Below the pieces are notes generated by a model. The model saw only the letters and a program-made list of their open reading frames with translations, was not told the DNA's origin and ran no database searches. DNA of 63,254 bases, filler included, from Collodictyon triciliatum (lineage: Eukaryota), in the NCBI GenBank assembly GCA_043381765.1. It is 4 parts of 4 records of this genome, joined end to end, with 100 filler letters (N's around TTAATTAATTAA, not from the genome) between each part and the next. Parts side by side here need not be neighbours in the genome. Positions count along the whole stretch, not along the records: positions 16,125 to 32,123 come from JBHJMP010001600.1; 3 more parts are not named here. One strand, written 5' to 3'. Each line of letters starts with the position of its first letter. Position 1 is the stretch's first letter. Below, one piece after another: positions 6,073 through 32,223 of this stretch. Both the position numbers and the translations under genes were made by a program.

Positions 6073-9324
<3,252 letters not shown>

Positions 9325-10476: not shown

Positions 10477-13400
10477 TTAATTTTGCAACTCTCGAAAATG
10501 AGGTCGAAGTTCAGGGTCTTCAGACCAACATTGTTGCATCATCCATACACGATGCTTGTTCATGCTACCCTTCAACTCAGGCCGTAGGCCATTCATCATG
10601 TAAATCTGAAGCAAAAACTGGTTTTCACCCTTGAATGGAACATCCCTAGTGTCAATCTCCCATAACATAATTCCGAATCCAAAGACATCCGCCTTTTCGT
10701 CATATTTCTTTCCTTTCATCACCTGTGTTTCATTTACTCAATTTTTTCTTTCGCCTGATAAATTCTAATATTTAAACAAAAATTATTAAAATTCACGCAC
10801 CTCTGGTGCTTGGTACATAAGGGTACCACACTTTGTCATCGTACGATTGTTCGATTTGACTCTTGCAAAGCCAAAGTCACATATCTTTGCTTCAAAGTTC
10901 TGAGTGATCTATTGCGGAGGGAGAATTTTCCTCTTTTTTATGCTTCCTCATTCTTTATTTATCAAAAAGAATATTATTCTTCAACACATTTTTTTTTAAA
11001 AAGAAAAAGAAAAATAAAGGTTTTTTTTTTTTACCAGGACGTTCTCTGGTTTTAGGTCTCTGTGCAAAACTATTGGGGTTAGAGAGTGCAAGTAGCTCAT
11101 CCCATTGATAATACCATCAATTATTTTCAGCCTGGATACATTTTTTTATTTAGAAAGACTACAATAACTCTATTAAATGAAAAATTGTTTGATTTTTTAA
11201 TTCTGATTATTATTATTATATATATTTGCATGTTGTACTTTTCAGTCTCTCCAATATCTAAAGACTGATCGAGGAGCAAGTTGCGTAAGTTTCCGGGTTC
11301 AACCAACTCCATTACAATGGCCAGGTTTGGCAAATCAGCACAAGCAGCGACAAATTCCACGATATTTTGATGCTTTAATTTCCTTATAAATAATGCATTT
11401 TTCGTGTTTCAATCAAACGATAATGGAATCCTAATTCATAAAAATTTACATATTAATGAAAAAAACCTTATGATAGAAACCTCTGCCAGAAACGATAGAT
11501 ATTTTTCATCTATTGTTCGAGTGTTCTCTTTTGATAGATTTTTTATAGCCACTCTTTTATCCTGCAGTGATTTTCAGGTTTAAAATTATTACTTTATGAA
11601 TGATGTCGTTCAATACTTAACATAAAAACATGATTATGATTATGTGGAGATGATTTTCATCATCCAAAGGGTAGGCGTATTAGTTGTTTTTTTTAAATTA
11701 AATATTACTCTATATATTCCTCGATATACAGACCCAAATGAACCAGAACCAAGAGAATCTTTCTCAAATATTATATCATTGAAATCAACCTCCCATTCGT
11801 ACCTATTTCTTAGGGGGTCGACCAAGCTGTACTTCTTTATATTTGCTTCAATGTTTTTTGTGCCCTCTGTGTTACTCATACCCTTCGATTCTAAATTGCC
11901 CTGACTATTTGATATGTTACCGAATGCATCGAGGGCATGAGGATGGTCAATCGCAGAATCTAGACCAATTGAGGGCTAGAGTATTTCAATATTTAGGATG
12001 ATGTAATTTTTTTAATTTTCTATAGGCACTTTATATAAAAATTTGATCTTTGGGTTATACCTGTCCATTTAAAGAGATTGAAGAAGCTTCGAAATTAGTT
12101 GAAGAGAAATGAGTCATTCTCTTCAGGAGCTTCTTTGGGCATATCTAATGAATTTATGTTGCTTAACTTAAACGGAAAAAAAAAGCATAGTCCTGTCCAA
12201 TATAATGAGAGGCGAAAAAAGAAATAGAGGAATTGGTTTTGCATGTTATTTTTTGGCGTGGGATCTTGTATGGTAACCTGATACAATCTATTGGAATGCA
12301 CACTAGCATTACTCGGCCTGATTAAGTGGATGACATTTTCTATTTCCAAGAATTTAATCTGTTCTCCAAGTTCCTATACCCATTCTCTTAGTTACGAGTT
12401 TGCTTTTCAATAAGGCACAATTCAATCAAACATTTTAAAAAAAATTCCCTTTATTCGATTCAAAGAATCAAAATGTTTTAAATTGTCTTGTTTCACCTGA
12501 TGGACGGCATTGGTAAAGGTAATTTGGCCTCCGCAGGAAGATCTACTGAGCTTTATAGAACTCGAGACTACCTTAGAACAGTATATTAGAAAAATTTAAA
12601 AACTATAAAGTAAAAAGACCTTATAATAGTCATCAAACCATTGAGACTGTTAACACAATGACATACCTTTCCATTGAATTGCCTTCGTCGGCTTATTTCG
12701 TCAAGTTTGCTCTCGCATTTACCGAAATCTACACCCTAATGATAAAATTTAATTTCTTTAATGTAAGATTAATTGACTAACTTTTGTAGAATCTAATCAG
12801 ATTTTCTCACATACCATCTGTGGCCGTAATCCTTTCAGGTCTCCATCAGCAATAGGTTTACCATAATCGTGGGCTAGTAAGCATTCTGGCCATTCTATCT
12901 CATTTAGATTTGATTGCACCTCCAGACAAAACCTTAATGGACAAAATAATTTCATTCTTTGTTTTATTTATAATTAAATTACTTTATACCTCGCTGCATT
13001 TCGAATCGAATAAAGGAAAAAAATATTTTAATCATTTTATATTATCGGTGAGTATTTGTCACCTTATGGCTGATAGAACATCCTGAAAAATGATGACAAA
13101 GTTCTCCCCATCATTCTGGCTGATGTATCCATGACATTTTCTGCATTCCTTTAGGATAATAAAATTTTGAAATTCTTTTTTTTCTTGGAAAATATAAATG
13201 GGTTCTACCTTTCTAATGACGCTATTATAATTTATCACAGAATCTCCCATATACTCTGGTATCTCATCCCAAAGGGTATCAGAACCAAAAATACGGCAAG
13301 AGACAGAAGTTACATCCCCAGAAGGAGCCGCAACCTCCTCATTCAATATTTCCTTGGTGTATTTGTTAATGATTAAAATGTGAAAACATTTAATGCTATC

Positions 13401-15868
13401 AAGTAATTTACTAACCGACATCTCTGAATTTAAAGCATATTTTGACATCTCCATCAGACTCTATTATTCGTGTGGTAATTGTATTAAGAATCTGAACTGA
13501 AAAAGAAAACGGCAGTTATCCAATAAAAAAAATCTAAGCTACGATGAAAATAACCCAATAATAATCATAGTTAACACAAACTGATAATCTCTTGACAATA
13601 TCTTGAAATGACGGTCTTTCTTGGGCATTTTGTGACCATGAGTCCAATATTATAGCTCGGATTTCTGATGGGACCGTTTTCGGAATTTTCGGTCGAAGTC
13701 CATTTTTCAAGACTTGAATAGGAATGGATGAAATATTCTCAATGTCAAAATAAGGGTCCATCCTCGTAATTATCTCCCACGATATAATACCAAAACTGTA
13801 AACATCAGCGCTGATCGTGTATTCTTTCGCTTCTATTACTTCTGGAGCTAGCCATAGTAGGCTACCCAACCTGTTACTTTTTTCCATCGAACCTTGCACA
13901 GTTGTCAATCCAAAATCGCTGTTTATTATAGAAATCAGAAATCAAAAGTACTCTCTGGTAAATCAATAAAATAAAATAAAATAAAATAAAATAAAATAAA
14001 ATAAAATAAAATAAAATAAAATAAAATAAAATAATATAAAATAAAATAATATAAAATAATATAATATAATATAATATAATATAATATAATATAATATAAT
14101 ATAATATAATATAATATAATATAATATAATATAATATAATATAATATAATATAAAATAAAATAAAATAAAAGTAAACGTGAAAGCAAAAGCAAAAGCAAA
14201 AGCAGTGATGAAAATGATAAAAAGAAATTATATCAATGTAACACCTGACTTTAAGGCGGAATCGATCATCAGCCTTTGTTATAAAAGTTTTATATTAATA
14301 AAAAATTCAGATTGATAAGATCGTTATTATTGAATTTATACCAGAATATTGAGGCTCTTCAAGTCTCGATGGATAATAGGAGGATTTGATAAATGAAGAT
14401 ATTGCATGCCTTTGAACAGGAAAATGGTACATGGTTAATCTAGGCAGTTTCTCTAACACCAATTATGGGCCGTCATCATATTTGACTGTAAGAATGTAAT
14501 TGGTTTATACCTCTGGATATATCAGACATGAAATGAAGCTTTTGTGAATATGTAACTGCCCTATCTTCATGTAAAACATCATATAAACTGCCTTGATGCA
14601 TTAATTCACATAATATACAAAGACTTGATTCATCGAAGCATGCTCCCATGTAAAGCACGATATTTGGATGTCTTAATCGTCTATGTTATAAATTTTTGGG
14701 TTTAAAATTAAATATTGTGTAAATTCTAAAATAATTTAAACATTACACCATCATTGATATTTCACTTTTGAACGCCTGAATCTGGTTTTTATTGAGCCTT
14801 TTTTCAGATAGGACTTTAATAGCTACTTCTGTTCCTCTCCATTCACCTTTAAAAACCTTCAGTAAAAAAATCGTAAAAAAAGTCAATCCAAATCTGAAAG
14901 GTCTCCCATCCATTATACAGATATAAAATGCCATCATTTACATATTTGCGATAAATCTGAATTCTATTTACCTCTCCATAGCTTCCACTGCCTATTTTCT
15001 GTCCAAAAGAGAGCTCAACAGAACTTATAATCCCGTACATGTCATTAACAGCACCCTTTACATTATCAATCATTTTTTTGCGATAAACAAGTATGCCAAC
15101 AACCATGAAAATGAAGGCGCCAACTACCGGCCCAATCAACCATAGATTTTCAGCCCTTCTTGATGCGGTATCTACTTATTAATTATAAATAGGTATTGAG
15201 CAAAGTTATCTTGTCAAACCAGAATCATTATCAATCTGTATAATCCTAATAATTATCAAGTGGAAACCTTTAACGCATTTATTCTGTTGTCGGTGAGGTA
15301 CAGGTCGGTAGAAATGAATCATTAGTATTAAAAATTATTTGTGTATTTCTCTCCTTTCAAAGTAAAAAAAAAAATACATTTAGCATGTAATATGCGTCAC
15401 GGCAGACACAATTCTCCGTTGCAGATTCATAAAATGAATTGTCAGGGCAACCTACATATGTAAATGTTACATTCCTATGCTTTCTAGCATACTGTATGTT
15501 GACAGGTAACTTTAAACGTAATTTAAATTACAGAGCTTCCAATTAATTTCTCTTGGCAAACCTAGATAATACCAACTCTTCACATCGAATTCTAATAGTG
15601 GTCCAACTGAAGGGACTCGGGCTCTTTTTCCTTTTCGAGTATCATAGTCTGACAGTATGAAATCCTGCAATTCAATGTCGGATATTCTCTAATATTTTGG
15701 GGGTACAAAATTATTTTGGATAAAAATTTTAATAAAGACAAAAAAAAAAAAATCGAGATCTTCTAAACTCGATAAAAATTAAGTAAAGACCATTAGTGGG
15801 GACGTCGGTATGAGGACATCTATGGCATTTGGATCATAGTAGTCATCGTCACCCCCACCCAGGAAGCG
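10477..15868 (-). CDS. Single-pass receptor: Cys-rich ectodomain - TM - TKL kinase - degenerate class III cyclase - TKL kinase (5'-partial)
   Basis: Ectodomain GCPDNSFYESATENCVCRDAYY. TM WLIGPVVGAFIFMVVGILVYRKK. Kinase 1: IGSGSYGEV, VAIK, HRDLKSLNIL, DFG, WLAPE. Cyclase-like: APSGDVTSVSCRIFGSDTLW...GYISQNDGENFVIIF...GLRPQMGVDFG. Kinase 2: LGSGSFGSV, HRDLKPENVL, DFG, YQAPE. Truncated by the contig end. Confidence 0.9.
13965..14170. repeat. (AAATA)n/(TAATA)n microsatellite, intronic
   Basis: Directly visible. Confidence 0.95.
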
Positions 15869-16024: not shown

Positions 16025-16124
16025 NNNNNNNNNNNNNNNNNNNNNNNNNNNNNNNNNNNNNNNNNNNNTTAATTAATTAANNNNNNNNNNNNNNNNNNNN
16101 NNNNNNNNNNNNNNNNNNNNNNNN
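16025..16124. other. Artificial contig linker (N44-TTAATTAATTAA-N44)
   Basis: 100-bp spacer with a six-frame stop cassette, identical at three sites. Confidence 0.97.
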
Positions 16125-16491: not shown

Positions 16492-17762
16492 ATGAGTGGG
16501 GCGAGTTTGCCGCAGGACTCACTCGCAGACATGTTGGATCAGCTGCACCGGTTTTCGTCACCACCGCCGCCCGTGGAAGGAAGCAACCGCGGGAAAGCGC
16601 TCCGCATCAAGGTTGTGACAGCAGGAAACACTGGGGCCGGGAAAAGCTGCCTGATCAAGCGGTATTGCGAAGAGAAGGTTGCTTGTGTTTCTTTCCGCTT
16701 ATACTTTCAGCAAACTCAAAGTATGTAAGGAAACAGAGAGAGATAACGGGGGAGTGATGAGGCAGAATTATTGTCCTCTTTTTTTTTCTCTCTCTCTCTC
16801 GTTGGGTTGCAGTCCTTTGCTTCTGATTAAGCATTTCCCACTTCTCTTTTCCTTTCTTTTTGCATGTGCTTTTGGGGAAACGTATGCAGTTTGTGTCAAA
16901 GTACATATCCACGATCGGCGTTGACTACGGAGTGAAGCGCGTCACGGTCGACGGGACGGTTGCCAAGGTCAACTTTTGGGATCTTTCTGGACACAGCGAC
17001 TTTGCGGAGGTGCGGAACGAGTTCTACGTCGACACACAAGGCGTGAGTTCAGCATCCCCTTTTTCTTTTCAATATGCCGCAGCCCATGGCACTCACGACT
17101 AGTCCACGTAATCTTTGAGATTAAAGAATGGCATATATATACAATATAAAAATGTGAGGAAAGGAGGATAATGTCGGTATATCTACTTTGTTTTACAGCT
17201 GATTCTGGTCTTCGATGTGACGTCAAGAAAAAGCTTCGATGACTTGCAGATATGGCTGAACGAGGCGATGCGCAGTGGTGTTCAGAATCCCATAGCCATT
17301 CTTTGTGCGAATAAGGTTCATCTCCGCATGTCGTTACTCTCTTTCCTCCCTTTTGGCCATTGATTGCTCGTAAATGGTTAGTGTGACCTTCGCGACACAA
17401 AAAAGAACTGCATCGGCGAAAAAGAAGGGCGAAGTTGGGCCATGGAACACGGAATGCCGTTTGTGATTTTATTCCATAATCACATCCAAAAAAAAAAAAA
17501 AAAAGATAAATATCAAATCTCGTAATTTGAATGTGAGTATATTGATAACGTTCTCTCTCTAAAGCTGTTTTTTTTTCATGAACGTCCAGCTAAATGTTTT
17601 TTTTTTATTTATTCCTATTATATTTCCTTTCATCTATTCCTTTACATGATTACCTAACACTCTTGTAGGTACTTTGAGACATCTTCGCTGACTGGTGCAC
17701 AAGTGAAAGAGATGTTCAATTATGTTTTTAGCAAAATAGTCGAGCGAGTGCGACCTCGATGA
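16492..17762 (+). CDS. RJL: RJL-family (DNAJC27/RBJ-like, no J domain) small GTPase
   Basis: RIKVVTAGNTGAGKSCLIKRYCEEK|FVSKYISTIGVDYGVK...KVNFWDLSGHSDFAEVRNEFYVDTQG|LILVFDVTSRKSF...LCANK|CDL...|YFETSSLTG. KSCLIKRYCE, DLSGH (catalytic Gln replaced by His) and VRNEFY are RJL signatures. No prenylation motif. Confidence 0.9.
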
Positions 17763-18273: not shown

Positions 18274-21200
18274 CTAAATGAGCGTCAACTCTTCGTCTTC
18301 CTTGGGTGCGACAAGATGCACCAACTCGTCCAACATGCGTTGTTGGGATTGATAAGTGTCCGAGTTGTTTTCCAGGGCCGAAAGAAGCATTAGATATTGA
18401 CCCATAATTTGCTTTTGTCTGTATTGTTGCGCAGATTAATTGAAGATGAATAAAACAATCGCTTTACATATAACCAAGCAAAGTGTAAACGTGAGAAAGG
18501 CGATAGAAAAAAAACGGAGATACACATCTCTTAAGAAATTGAAGATTTCATAATTTAAGGCAGAAAGCTGACCAATGATAATAAAGTGGGGAGAGAATAA
18601 CCTGTGGGGAATATGGTCGTCTGGATAGTAATCATCAACCGACTTTGGCCCCGTGAACTCGTCGCGAATCATTTTTTTCAATTTAGACGAGCGGTCGCCT
18701 TCCTTCCTTTGTTCTTCTTGCTACGAGTGACCATGACAAACAAGTCAGTGGCACAAACATTTGATAAGAATATAATCGAGTGTCTGTGCTGCAGATATTG
18801 ATACGGATGTATCGAGGTTTTTCTGCAATCACGAGAATGGAAAGGCTAGGTAAATATTTAAAGTAAGGAAAGCTCTAAAAGGCATCCACCTCTTCTTTAG
18901 CCTTAATCTTTTTCATTTTCTTTTTCATGTGCATCTGATTCGCTTGCAGGTTGTTGACGATGACGGCAACAAAGAAATTGGTCAGCACAAATGTTTCAAT
19001 CACAATGAAGACAATCAGGAAGATAATCTGCAAACGATACCCAACAAAATATTGGTAAAGTGCCAAATTTTCTGGTTAGTACATAAAAGAATAGGCATGT
19101 GCGGTATTAGCATTCTGTGTTTTGGAGATGCAATAATCATGCATAGAAGAAGGGGGAAATGAAGGCATACGATTGTCTTATCTTTCCCTTCGATTGAATT
19201 GTACAGCTATTTGAGTAAAGAAACGAGAAAATGTGAGATACAGCATCCAAGTGGGCACAACTATCCGCAAGTATCAATAAAAATCGGGCAATCATGAGGC
19301 AACCAACAGAGAATGAATATATGAAGCTCGGGATTAAGTCAAATTCGTTCATACTTTAAACCAGTCGTCGAGCGAAAGGACTGTGAACAGCATGAAAATG
19401 GATATCCACATTTGCCCGAATCTTTCCGGGTCGATATCGCCATAAAGCTCTCTTCCGATGGTTGCAAAGATGACTGGGTTATACAGTGATCAAGGAAAAC
19501 TCTCATAGGTTTCTTTCCTTCCATTCGCTTCAGATGTGCTCCACGAATAGAGTAGAATGGAGTTGGAGAATATATCACATATCTCGCTTCGTGTGGAATA
19601 TCAAACTGGCTTTCTTTAAAATAGAAAAACTCAAATTGAATGCAATAAATTGAAAAAAATTGTCAAAATAGGGGCTTTGGATACACATAATCAAGCTCAG
19701 CAACATGACGATGCTTCCAAGAGCAGGGATCGACTTGAGAATTGTACTGACGATAGTTTGCAAACTTTGCAGAAAGCTTACAGTTCTCAGAGTACGAAGG
19801 GCTCTAAGCGCGCGAATAGCACGGAAGACTCTGAGGAGACGAAAGATTTTGGGATTCATACTACCAGTAGATNNNNNNNNNNNNNNNNNNNNNNNNNNNN
19901 NNNNNNNNNNNNNNNNNNNNNNNNNNNNNNNNNNNNNNNNNNNNNNNNNNNNNNNNNNNNNNNNNNNNNNNNNNNNNNNNNNNNNNNNNNNNNNNNNNNN
20001 NNNNNNNNNNNNNNNNNNNNNNNNNNNNNNNNNNNNNNNNNNNNNNNNNNNNNNNNNNNNNNNNNNNNNNNNNNNNNNNNNNNNNNNNNNNNNNNNNNNN
20101 NNNNNNNNNNNNNNNNNNNNNNNNNNNNNNNNNNNNNNNNNNNNNNNNNNNNNNNNNNNNNNNNNNNNNNNNNNNNNNNNNNNNNNNNNNNNNNNNNNNN
20201 NNNNNNNNNNNNNNNNNNNNNNNNNNNNNNNNNNNNNNNNNNNNNNNNNNNNNNNNNNNNNNNNNNNNNNNNNNNNNNNNNNNNNNNNNNNNNNNNNNNN
20301 NNNNNNNNNNNNNNNNNNNNNNNNNNNNNNNNNNNNNNNNNNNNNNNNNNNNNNGTATAGTAATTTGAGGATATCTCTGTTTTCTTTTCCACTTGTAGAA
20401 GAGTCTCACGAGTGTAACAGCAATAAATTGGTGGGATATAATCGTTGGTATGTCAAACCTGATCTCATGGAGGAGGACTTGTCAGTCTGGATGGCGATTA
20501 ACAGAGTGTTCATCAAAATGATTAACAGAATAAAGTTTGTAAACTTTGCAGATTCAACTATCTTGAAATGGGTTTGTGAATTGAAATAGGGATTAAATTA
20601 TAAATTAGATAAAATGGTTGCTGATTTGAAAGTGGCAAACTAAAATATAAGAAAGAATGATTCTGTGGGCACAATTTTATGAATATTATGAACCTCCATT
20701 ATGTAGAGTCTCAAAGGAGACCATTGAGAGAGGGTTCGTTTTTTTCTCATCGCCGCGAGTGTATTGCTTTTGTTATGGCGAATATTAAAAAAAAAAAAAA
20801 AAAGAGAGAGAGAGAGAGAGAGAACCGATATTTTGGTGAATTGCTATTCCATGATATCGATTTCTAAATTTTGAGGCAAAAGATCTAGAGGCTTGGAGTT
20901 TAAATAGTACGCACTACTAGCTATTTTTCTCTTTCTTTTTTGGCTTCGTATCGGTGCATATTAATTTAATTCAAATGATTTTCAAATGATTATAATAAAG
21001 CTATGAAGAGTGACAGGACTAGCACAAACTTTGCAGCGTGGGCACGCAAGGCCATCGGGATAGTCTCGGAAGTGTTTGTGCCTGAAATGCTCGCACTAGT
21101 CTTTGACGCGCTTTCAGAATCTGTCATTGAGCGGGTTTCGCTCTCTGTCTCCGAAATTATGGAGTTGGATTCCTCTGCAGAGCTGAGAATACATAAATTG

Positions 21201-21412
21201 TTGTGTAGATATGTTCGATTAGAGTTGAGAGGCTTTAAAAAAATGGGAATGAATTGACAGGTTAAATGATTATGAACATTTCCATCGGCGAAACGCATGA
21301 AAATAGGACGAAGTGGACATAGAAATGTGGCTCTGAAAAGAAGTAAAAAAAAAAAAATAAAAAGGCGATATACTTCACTAAATGGGGGGATATGGACTCA
21401 CTTAGATTCCAT
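18274..21412 (-). CDS. CatSper1-like 6-TM cation channel alpha subunit (S2-S3 fall in the sequence gap)
   Basis: S1 FTNFILLIILMNTLLIAIQT. S4 RLLRVFRAIRALRALRTLRTVSFL. S5/pore IFATIGRELYGDIDPERFGQMWISIFMLFTVLSLDDWFK. S6 IIFLIVFIVIETFVLTNFFVAVIVNNLQ. C-terminal helix RQKQIMGQYLMLLSALENNSDTYQSQQRMLDELV. The start (MES|N, 21412) is inferred from splice phase. Confidence 0.85.
19873..20354. other. Scaffold gap (Ns) inside the channel gene
   Basis: N run without the linker cassette; channel exons lie on both sides in the expected order. Confidence 0.95.
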
Positions 21413-32123: not shown

Positions 32124-32223
32124 NNNNNNNNNNNNNNNNNNNNNNNNNNNNNNNNNNNNNNNNNNNNTTAATTAATTAANNNNNNNNNNNNNNNNNNNNN
32201 NNNNNNNNNNNNNNNNNNNNNNN
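32124..32223. other. Artificial contig linker
   Basis: N44-TTAATTAATTAA-N44. Confidence 0.97.

Follow-up and report, generated by a model that had tools for sequence, protein, structure and literature searches.

Does the free-living flagellate Collodictyon triciliatum carry a gene for a pore-forming subunit of CatSper, the sperm-type calcium channel, and would such a gene represent a new kind of channel or a further branch of a known family? We explore this question in a stretch of 63,254 nucleotides from assembly GCA_043381765.1 (hereafter the window; four parts joined by filler letters), in which a 416-codon gene occupies positions 21412-18274 of the minus strand, within the part taken from JBHJMP010001600.1. 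This is very probably an intact, expressed nuclear gene, closest to those of Diphylleia rotans, that encodes a CatSper1-type pore-forming subunit. It belongs, as would be expected, to an ancient and widespread family and does not represent a new kind of channel.

The gene model was built by tblastn of P0002, a 415-residue transcript-derived D. rotans protein (EukProt EP00002), against the window, after which GT/AG pairs between the resulting pieces were enumerated and scored against P0002. Collinear pieces were recovered for all residues of P0002 but 115-167 and 270-290, and a 36-nt micro-exon supplies residues 270-281 at the same length as in P0002. Ten exons are visible, about eleven in all, and all eight fully visible introns are bounded by GT..AG and measure 132-263 nt. 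As far as visible, the reading frame is open from ATG (21412-21410) to TAG (18276-18274), and the interval 18274..21412 given by the original prediction, which had proposed a CatSper1-like subunit at this locus, brackets the coding sequence exactly. The prediction was equally correct about a gap at 19873-20354, which is a run of 482 N's and conceals approximately 166 coding letters (S2-S3); with one ambiguous base counted, 340 + 166 + 1 = 507 letters, or 169 codons, so that the frame is kept across the N run. All four peptides it quoted, RVFRAIRALRALRTLRTVSFL, LSLDDW, NFFVAVIVNNLQ and QYLMLLSALENN...QQRMLDELV (18418-18277), lie on the minus strand, each in an exon of its own. The parts of the gene, in transcript order and with the joints seen in the contig sets X1 and X2 described below, are as follows.

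21402..21412, minus strand: exon 1, 11 nt, which opens with the start codon (ATG, 21412-21410) and is followed by the donor GTGAGT; joint 21182/21402 in both X1 and X2.
21030..21182, minus strand: exon 2, the Ser/Thr/Glu-rich cytoplasmic N-terminus; 57% identity to P0002 residues 5-50; joints 21182/21402 and 20766/21030.
20694..20766, minus strand: exon 3, the cytoplasmic segment before S1, with RKKRTLSQWSPLR; joints 20766/21030 and 20561/20694.
20459..20561, minus strand: exon 4, S1, ending in phase 1; its open reading frame (ORF) scores 33.2 bits on the hidden Markov model (HMM) of animal CatSper1.
19873..20354: the 482-N run, which would conceal what remains of intron 4, the exon for S2, another intron and the beginning of the S3-S5 exon, a layout taken from the D. 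rotans proteins P0001 and P0002.
19685..19872, minus strand: exon covering the last part of the S3-S4 loop, S4 (RVFRAIRALRALRTLRTVSFL), the S4-S5 linker and the first part of S5; 82.5% identity to P0002; joint 19473/19685.
19355..19473, minus strand: exon that completes S5 and carries the pore helix, followed by the selectivity filter SLDDW (it reads LSLDDW); joints seen.
19171..19206, minus strand: the 36-nt micro-exon LYNSIEGKDKTI, the loop between filter and S6; joints 19206/19355 and 19027/19171 in both X1 and X2.
18890..19027, minus strand: S6 exon (NFFVAVIVNNLQ), in which a long Lys-rich cytoplasmic helix also begins; its CatSper1 HMM score is 39.1 bits; joints seen.
18602..18720, minus strand: cytoplasmic linker exon (GPKSVDDYYPDDHIPHR); joints 18720/18890 and 18418/18602.
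18274..18418, minus strand: last exon, which encodes the conserved C-terminal helix QKQIMGQYLMLLSALENN…QQRMLDELV and ends in the stop codon TAG (18276-18274); 31.7 bits on the animal CatSper1 HMM; its joint is also found in X7.

The micro-exon at 19206-19171, between pore and S6, had no place in the original prediction.

Expression of this gene is indicated by contigs from two public runs of one study (X1 and X2), which cover the exons at 99% or more in spliced form. The label ‘RNA’ for X1 and X2 is a guess, and we call the contigs RNA-like since they are spliced. Both sets contain the joints of all eight fully visible predicted introns (read as CT..AC along the plus strand and hence as GT..AG in the direction of the gene), and a ninth joint connects 19872 and 20458 through 165 intervening letters, bridging the N run in frame. 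The last junction recurs in a contig of X7, a freshwater metatranscriptome, and three short DNA contigs of X3, a freshwater metagenome, match exon-intron stretches with 0-2 differences. The gene is therefore real, transcribed and intact as far as visible, being spliced at every predicted joint. Upstream of 21483, the contigs of X1 and X2 share 22-23 identical extra letters; this 22-letter loose 5' end has no occurrence within the 63-kb window and could be a distant exon of the 5' untranslated region, a trans-spliced leader or an adapter. One X2 contig departs from the window inside intron 2, at 20941, with 31 unlike letters, and may be an alternative form or a chimera.

The encoded protein comprises 416 residues with a single six-transmembrane (6-TM) Ion_trans repeat, its S2-S3 portion presumably corresponding to the 165 bridging letters. 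Pfam Ion_trans is recognised in the S4-S5 frame by itself at E 1.8e-10, far beyond chance, and in the S6 frame at E 0.0024, while in P0002 the domain is found once (residues 81-312), likewise in four relatives, with E ~1e-45. No second channel exon or gene was detected by channel HMMs among the 1571 six-frame ORFs of the window, in which matches (E < 0.01) fall solely within 18277-20597 of the minus strand. S4 carries eight basic residues (one Lys and seven Arg), one per three positions. Selectivity filters of these channels follow the consensus [T/S]x[D/E]xW, and the filter here reads SLDDW, with a Ser at the first position that occurs in none of 82 CatSper1-type relatives.

The first 75 residues contain 16 Ser, 9 Thr, 8 Glu and a single His. 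The original prediction saw in this Ser/Glu/Thr-rich N-terminus a replacement for the His-rich, pH-sensing stretch of mammalian CatSper1, and suggested different gating as a consequence. Its composition was read correctly, but the notion of a replacement finds no support, as a His-rich N-terminal stretch is found in none of the 82 CatSper1-type relatives (any 40 residues contain seven His at most). Nor can different gating be deduced, because a His-poor N-terminus is the norm and because sea urchin CatSper, which has no His-enriched N-terminus, is still activated by alkalinisation, pH sensing being assigned to EFCAB9, according to the available portion of Hwang et al. (10.1101/459487).

Which subtype the protein belongs to can be judged by scores, solved structures and sequence signatures. 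Class HMMs were derived from named sequences only (10 animal CatSper1, 7 animal CatSper3 and 10 bacterial channels), with these results.

Window protein, visible 360 residues: animal CatSper1 HMM 273.8 bits, CatSper3 HMM 107.5 bits, bacterial HMM 139.3 bits.
Control, CatSper3-type protein of Fabomonas: CatSper1 HMM 172 bits, CatSper3 HMM 372 bits, bacterial HMM 150.7 bits.

The C-terminal exon matches the CatSper1 HMM (31.7 bits, E 6.7e-9) and gives no match on the CatSper3 or bacterial HMMs. Among solved structures, mouse CatSper1 is the best-scoring single-repeat channel both for P0002 and for each window exon tested. P0002 aligns with it (7eeb_A) at 193.4 bits in one stretch, residues 69-411 against 608-952, through the C-terminal helix, compared with ~120 bits for bacterial channels and 81 bits for the best single repeat of Cav3.1; four-repeat channels outrank CatSper1 for P0002 because the scores of their four repeats add up. 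Mouse CatSper2-4 score below 112.9 bits, outside the best 60 matches, and it is by that alone that CatSper2 and CatSper4 are judged. Taken singly, the pore exon finds two CatSper1 chains at the top of 177,635 PDB sequences (29.1 and 27.8 bits), followed by a bacterial channel at 27.2 bits, and the S4-S5 exon finds CatSper1 at 38.2 bits in one stretch, the best bacterial channel reaching 30.1 bits. The last exon alone has the C-terminus of mouse CatSper1 as its top PDB match and its one credible match (E 1.1, not significant by itself).

Pore and S4 signatures divide the three kinds of channel in the following way.

CatSper1-type hits: pore TLDDW in 69/82; median S4 basic run 8.
CatSper3-type hits: pore T[AV]DGW in 38/56; median S4 basic run 5.
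Bacterial-type hits: pore TLESW in 20/27; median S4 basic run 4.
Window protein: pore SLDDW; S4 basic run 8.

The pore contrast on which the original prediction had relied is confirmed for CatSper1 and bacterial channels: the pore-exon alignment shows TLDDW in mouse CatSper1, whereas bacterial-type pores mostly read TLESW. Its central claim, that of a single-repeat channel of CatSper1 type and not of the bacterial sodium channel (BacNav) kind, is borne out by HMM scores, solved structures, pore and S4 signatures, and a C-terminal helix for which, of the models compared, CatSper1 alone gives a match.

Phylogeny, which the original prediction had proposed as a check, agrees with this assignment in part. 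A careful IQ-TREE analysis of 57 rows places the window protein and two D. rotans paralogs in a clade (100/99) inside the group that contains every named CatSper1, with the CatSper3 group (100/99) and the bacteria (100/100) both separate from it. The D. rotans paralogs P0002 and P0004 are sisters at 97/69, and the window gene branches off outside them; either the duplication postdates the split of the two lineages, the window gene then being that of another species or strain of the group, or the window gene is a third paralog. The 6-TM fold of the D. rotans orthologue is visible in an AlphaFold model of P0002 based on 75 aligned relatives (mean predicted local distance difference test score, pLDDT, 82.2), which shows six helices that span the membrane, two in the pore, a long one after S6 and one near the C-terminus (367-404), residues 1-41 being disordered. 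A model on a 10-row alignment (pLDDT 57.5) was too poor and was not used. Foldseek returns the CatSper1 chain of 7eeb as the first match of the P0002 model (E 8.2e-12, 38% identity). Two side observations concern other rows of the tree. P0213 of Tritrichomonas foetus, named ‘cation channel, sperm associated 1-like’, falls in the CatSper3-type clade on a very long branch of 4.14; it may be misnamed, or its position may be an artefact. The unnamed ENA proteins P0092 and P0104, both divergent and both with a TLDDW pore, pair on a long stem of 1.3 beside Lingula CatSper1; they were considered as seeds for CatSper2/4 and rejected, since the best solved single-repeat match of P0092 is CatSper1 (120 bits).

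How widely is this family distributed? A search with the 62-residue S4-S5 exon gave 15 proteins at E <= 0.001 among 277 candidates, the best complete one being P0002, and a profile of ten relatives (A1) then matched 196 proteins at E <= 1e-5 among 8000 scored candidates, from the best 120 of which the following members are named. Matches are eukaryotic down to ~265 bits, with bacterial ion transporters below, at ~180-200 bits. They include proteins named CatSper1 by NCBI from Nematostella, corals, sponges, Lingula, Allomyces, Blastocladiella and chytrids, a Thecamonas ‘ion transporter’, and, by EukProt accession, proteins of Fabomonas, Gefionella, Rhodelphis, Ancoracysta, Nonionella, Chromosphaera and Syssomonas. 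A second profile (A2) was made from P0093, a weak eukaryotic match of A1 which is of CatSper3 type (189.8 bits to mouse CatSper3, 7eeb_C, versus 68.2 to CatSper1), and P0099. It matched 237 proteins at E <= 1e-10, and the best 120 of these contain named members from hemichordates, sponges, Thecamonas, Chara and Paratrimastix as well as EukProt members from Fabomonas, Gefionella, Ploeotia, Pygsuia, Picozoa and Rhodelphis. The two types occur together in at least 11 species: Rhodelphis, Fabomonas, Chromosphaera, Gefionella, Oscarella, Cladochytrium, Thecamonas, Corticium, Mesostigma, Chlorokybus and Orbicella. In sum of both types, the reach extends to the archaeplastids Mesostigma, Chlorokybus, Chara, Cyanophora and Rhodelphis, and to Gefionella, Fabomonas, Ploeotia, Paratrimastix, Aduncisulcus, Nonionella and Hondaea. 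Within the window itself, a Pfam scan of 181 of the 211 ORFs of at least 70 residues found no CatSper auxiliary family; the other 30 ORFs lie inside the gene (7) or overlap other listed ORFs (23).

The suggestion of a new lineage record, also made by the original prediction, holds in a weak sense, for the literature: among the matches listed, we found none linking CatSper with Diphylleia, Collodictyon, Fabomonas, Mantamonas or CRuMs, and one that pairs CatSper with Thecamonas. It does not hold for sequence collections, as the D. rotans orthologue is already in EukProt, nor for the age of the family, whose origin before the split of unikonts and bikonts is in print in the available text of PMC5362262.

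Several results weigh against a CatSper1-type identity. The tree has no rows for CatSper2, CatSper4, EukCat or TPC; the CatSper1-type group as a whole is supported at 76/78 only; and approximately unbiased (AU) tests reject neither a union of the window-Diphylleia triad with the CatSper3 group (p 0.352, log-likelihood difference 2.4) nor one with the bacteria (p 0.177, difference 13.2). The margin of CatSper1 over NavAb in Foldseek is small (E 8e-12 versus 3e-11), with NavMs also close, and a language-model look-alike search (ESM Atlas) put chordate CatSper3 and CatSper2 clusters nearest to P0002, not CatSper1. Moreover, no CatSper3-type protein could be assigned to D. rotans among the best 120 of the 237 matches, with 10 names looked up. 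Because the AU tests reject nothing, the long CatSper3 and bacterial stems cannot be placed by the tree on its own. We read that outcome as two long stems without a settled attachment and not as doubt about the subtype, and we do not take the tree alone as proof of orthology. CatSper1 being barely ahead of NavAb and NavMs in Foldseek, the fold is therefore generic for the superfamily. The closeness of NavAb in Foldseek and the AU result for the bacteria, together with a 6-TM fold and many motifs common to all single-repeat families, and with a comparison to EukCat that used its published description and no named EukCat sequence, are what speaks for a channel of another single-repeat family (EukCat, or a bacterial-type sodium or calcium channel acquired by a eukaryote) that merely resembles CatSper1. 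Such an origin is very unlikely: the CatSper1 HMM scores 274 bits versus 139 for the bacterial one, the gene is intron-rich, the pore reads DDW and not ESW, and the C-terminal helix is common to animal CatSper1 and absent from bacterial and CatSper3 models. It is harder still to credit that the locus is a pseudogene, a piece of some four-repeat channel or an artefact of assembly, a view suggested by the 482-N gap that breaks the gene and by bases 20355-20458 just upstream of it, which have no channel-like frame. We had considered this stretch as a degenerate S2 and dropped the idea, for it is an intron, its donor at 20458 lying at the same place as an intron read through in P0001, the protein of a D. 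rotans genomic contig. The spliced contigs moreover bridge the gap in frame, the frame from ATG to TAG is open and collinear with a complete transcript-derived protein of 415 residues, and the window has no other channel exon.

A more substantial alternative accepts descent from CatSper1 and disputes the company that the subunit keeps. The protein might work without CatSper2-4, as a homotetramer or a tetramer of CatSper1 paralogs only, which would be a simple voltage-gated Ca2+ channel with a DDDD filter. Two CatSper1-type paralogs in D. rotans, sisters at 97/69, would fit such a design, as would the likeness of the LDDW filter to that of the homotetrameric CavAb and the lack of an identified D. 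rotans protein among the best 120 of 237 CatSper3-type matches. The latter negative is weak, because the search was word-limited and its source is a transcriptome, which can miss genes; five CatSper3-type hits with Trinity names, when looked up, came from Fabomonas, Gefionella and Ploeotia. Against this alternative stand the 11 other species with both subunit types, which argue for a conserved heteromer, and reports, in the available text of PMC5362262 and 10.1101/459487, of a joint pattern of gain and loss for CatSper1-4, beta, gamma, epsilon and EFCAB9. We consider a channel independent of CatSper2-4 unlikely, and a stronger version, in which diphylleids keep CatSper1-type subunits only and need neither CatSper2-4 nor the large auxiliary subunits for a functional Ca2+ channel, somewhat more unlikely again. 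If true, it would provide a minimal CatSper that could be expressed heterologously, as yet unachieved for animal CatSper, whose heterologous reconstitution is described as ‘at a standstill’ in the available part of 10.1101/459487.

Taking the gene as that of a CatSper1-type subunit, its likenesses to known systems can be set out. As in animal CatSper1 (mouse, 7eeb chain A), there is a single 6-TM repeat, an xLDDW filter, a highly charged S4 followed by SFL-type residues, and a homologous C-terminal helix, the alignment of P0002 reaching residue 411 of 415. Unlike mammalian CatSper1, the protein has no His-rich N-terminus, carries Ser for Thr at the first filter position and is short at 416 residues; its host is a free-living flagellate and not a sperm cell. 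Closest are P0002 and P0004 of D. rotans, a member of Collodictyonidae within CRuMs, with 66-67% identity, the same length, a Ser/Thr/Glu-rich N-terminal region and the C-terminal helix, and the intron places visible in P0001 are common to the window gene. CatSper3-type proteins (mouse 7eeb chain C; Thecamonas, Fabomonas and Chara among others) share the superfamily, the size and the filter Asp, but differ in a T[AV]DGW filter, a median S4 run of 5 and the C-terminus. The bacterial channels NavAb, NaChBac and NavMs and the engineered CavAb share the fold (TM-score by target 0.7-0.85) and the principle of tetrameric architecture; the bacterial channels are unlike it in their TLESW pores (20/27), shorter S4 (median 4), lack of introns and lack of the CatSper1 C-terminal helix. 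CavAb, an engineered homotetrameric Ca2+ channel whose entries appear here by title only, has a filter similar to LDDW. EukCat channels of diatoms, haptophytes and dinoflagellates are eukaryotic too, being voltage-gated cation channels of one repeat that have a coiled coil at the C-terminus, and their clades A-C (Helliwell et al. 2019) are distinct from CatSper and limited to algae with red-type plastids, as stated in the available text of PMC6509283; they are set apart here by this published description only.

From these features a mode of action can be proposed. The predicted layout comprises a disordered Ser/Thr/Glu-rich N-terminus, one voltage-sensor domain (S1-S4), a pore domain, a long post-S6 helix and the family-specific C-terminal helix, and the SLDDW filter would place Asp at the selectivity site. 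Four such domains would form a Ca2+-selective pore and, by analogy with animals, may be one each of CatSper1-4 within a larger complex. The channel would reside in the flagellar membrane, where depolarisation and/or alkalinisation might open it to Ca2+ entry and so alter the flagellar beat.

The surroundings are those of AT-rich eukaryotic DNA, with a GC fraction of 0.31-0.48 in 3-kb windows, many microsatellites and short introns; no tRNA genes were found in the window. Recognisable neighbours are listed here.

16827-17099, plus strand: exon of a Ras-family GTPase, E 4e-9, which lies ~1.2 kb past the 3' end of the channel gene.
10480-13941, minus strand, and 33678-34986, plus strand: protein kinase exons (TKL-like; Pfam PK_Tyr_Ser-Thr, E down to 1.4e-23).
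50000-50215, plus strand: myosin head exon, E 4.9e-19.

The kinase exons belong to at least two genes, upstream and downstream of the channel gene, and further Pfam matches in the window are NIF phosphatase, LRR, Fra10Ac1 and PPR. Simple repeats are frequent, and a long (GA/TC)n-type microsatellite at 6686-7232 reads as SL/ES/TL repeats in all frames. At 16025-16124, 32124-32223 and 48225-48324, each time by a low-complexity repeat, 44 N's, 12 bases and 44 N's follow one another, which looks like masking or scaffolding and not biology.

With this gene, the family gains a transcribed CatSper1 orthologue, known from genomic sequence and with its introns resolved, in CRuMs, a deep branch near Amorphea. 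CatSper1- or CatSper3-type proteins are also seen in ancyromonads, malawimonads, archaeplastids, a euglenid, metamonads, a foraminifer and a labyrinthulomycete, and this spread, together with the window gene, supports dating the origin of CatSper subunits to the last eukaryotic common ancestor or close to it. Such an origin is earlier than the one stated in a review, which assigns CatSper to ‘Apusozoa + animals + fungi’ (PMC7935092), and agrees with an emergence ‘before unikonts and bikonts’, as given in the part of PMC5362262 cited above. Short protist orthologues of this kind, without the add-ons of mammalian CatSper1, are candidates for heterologous expression.

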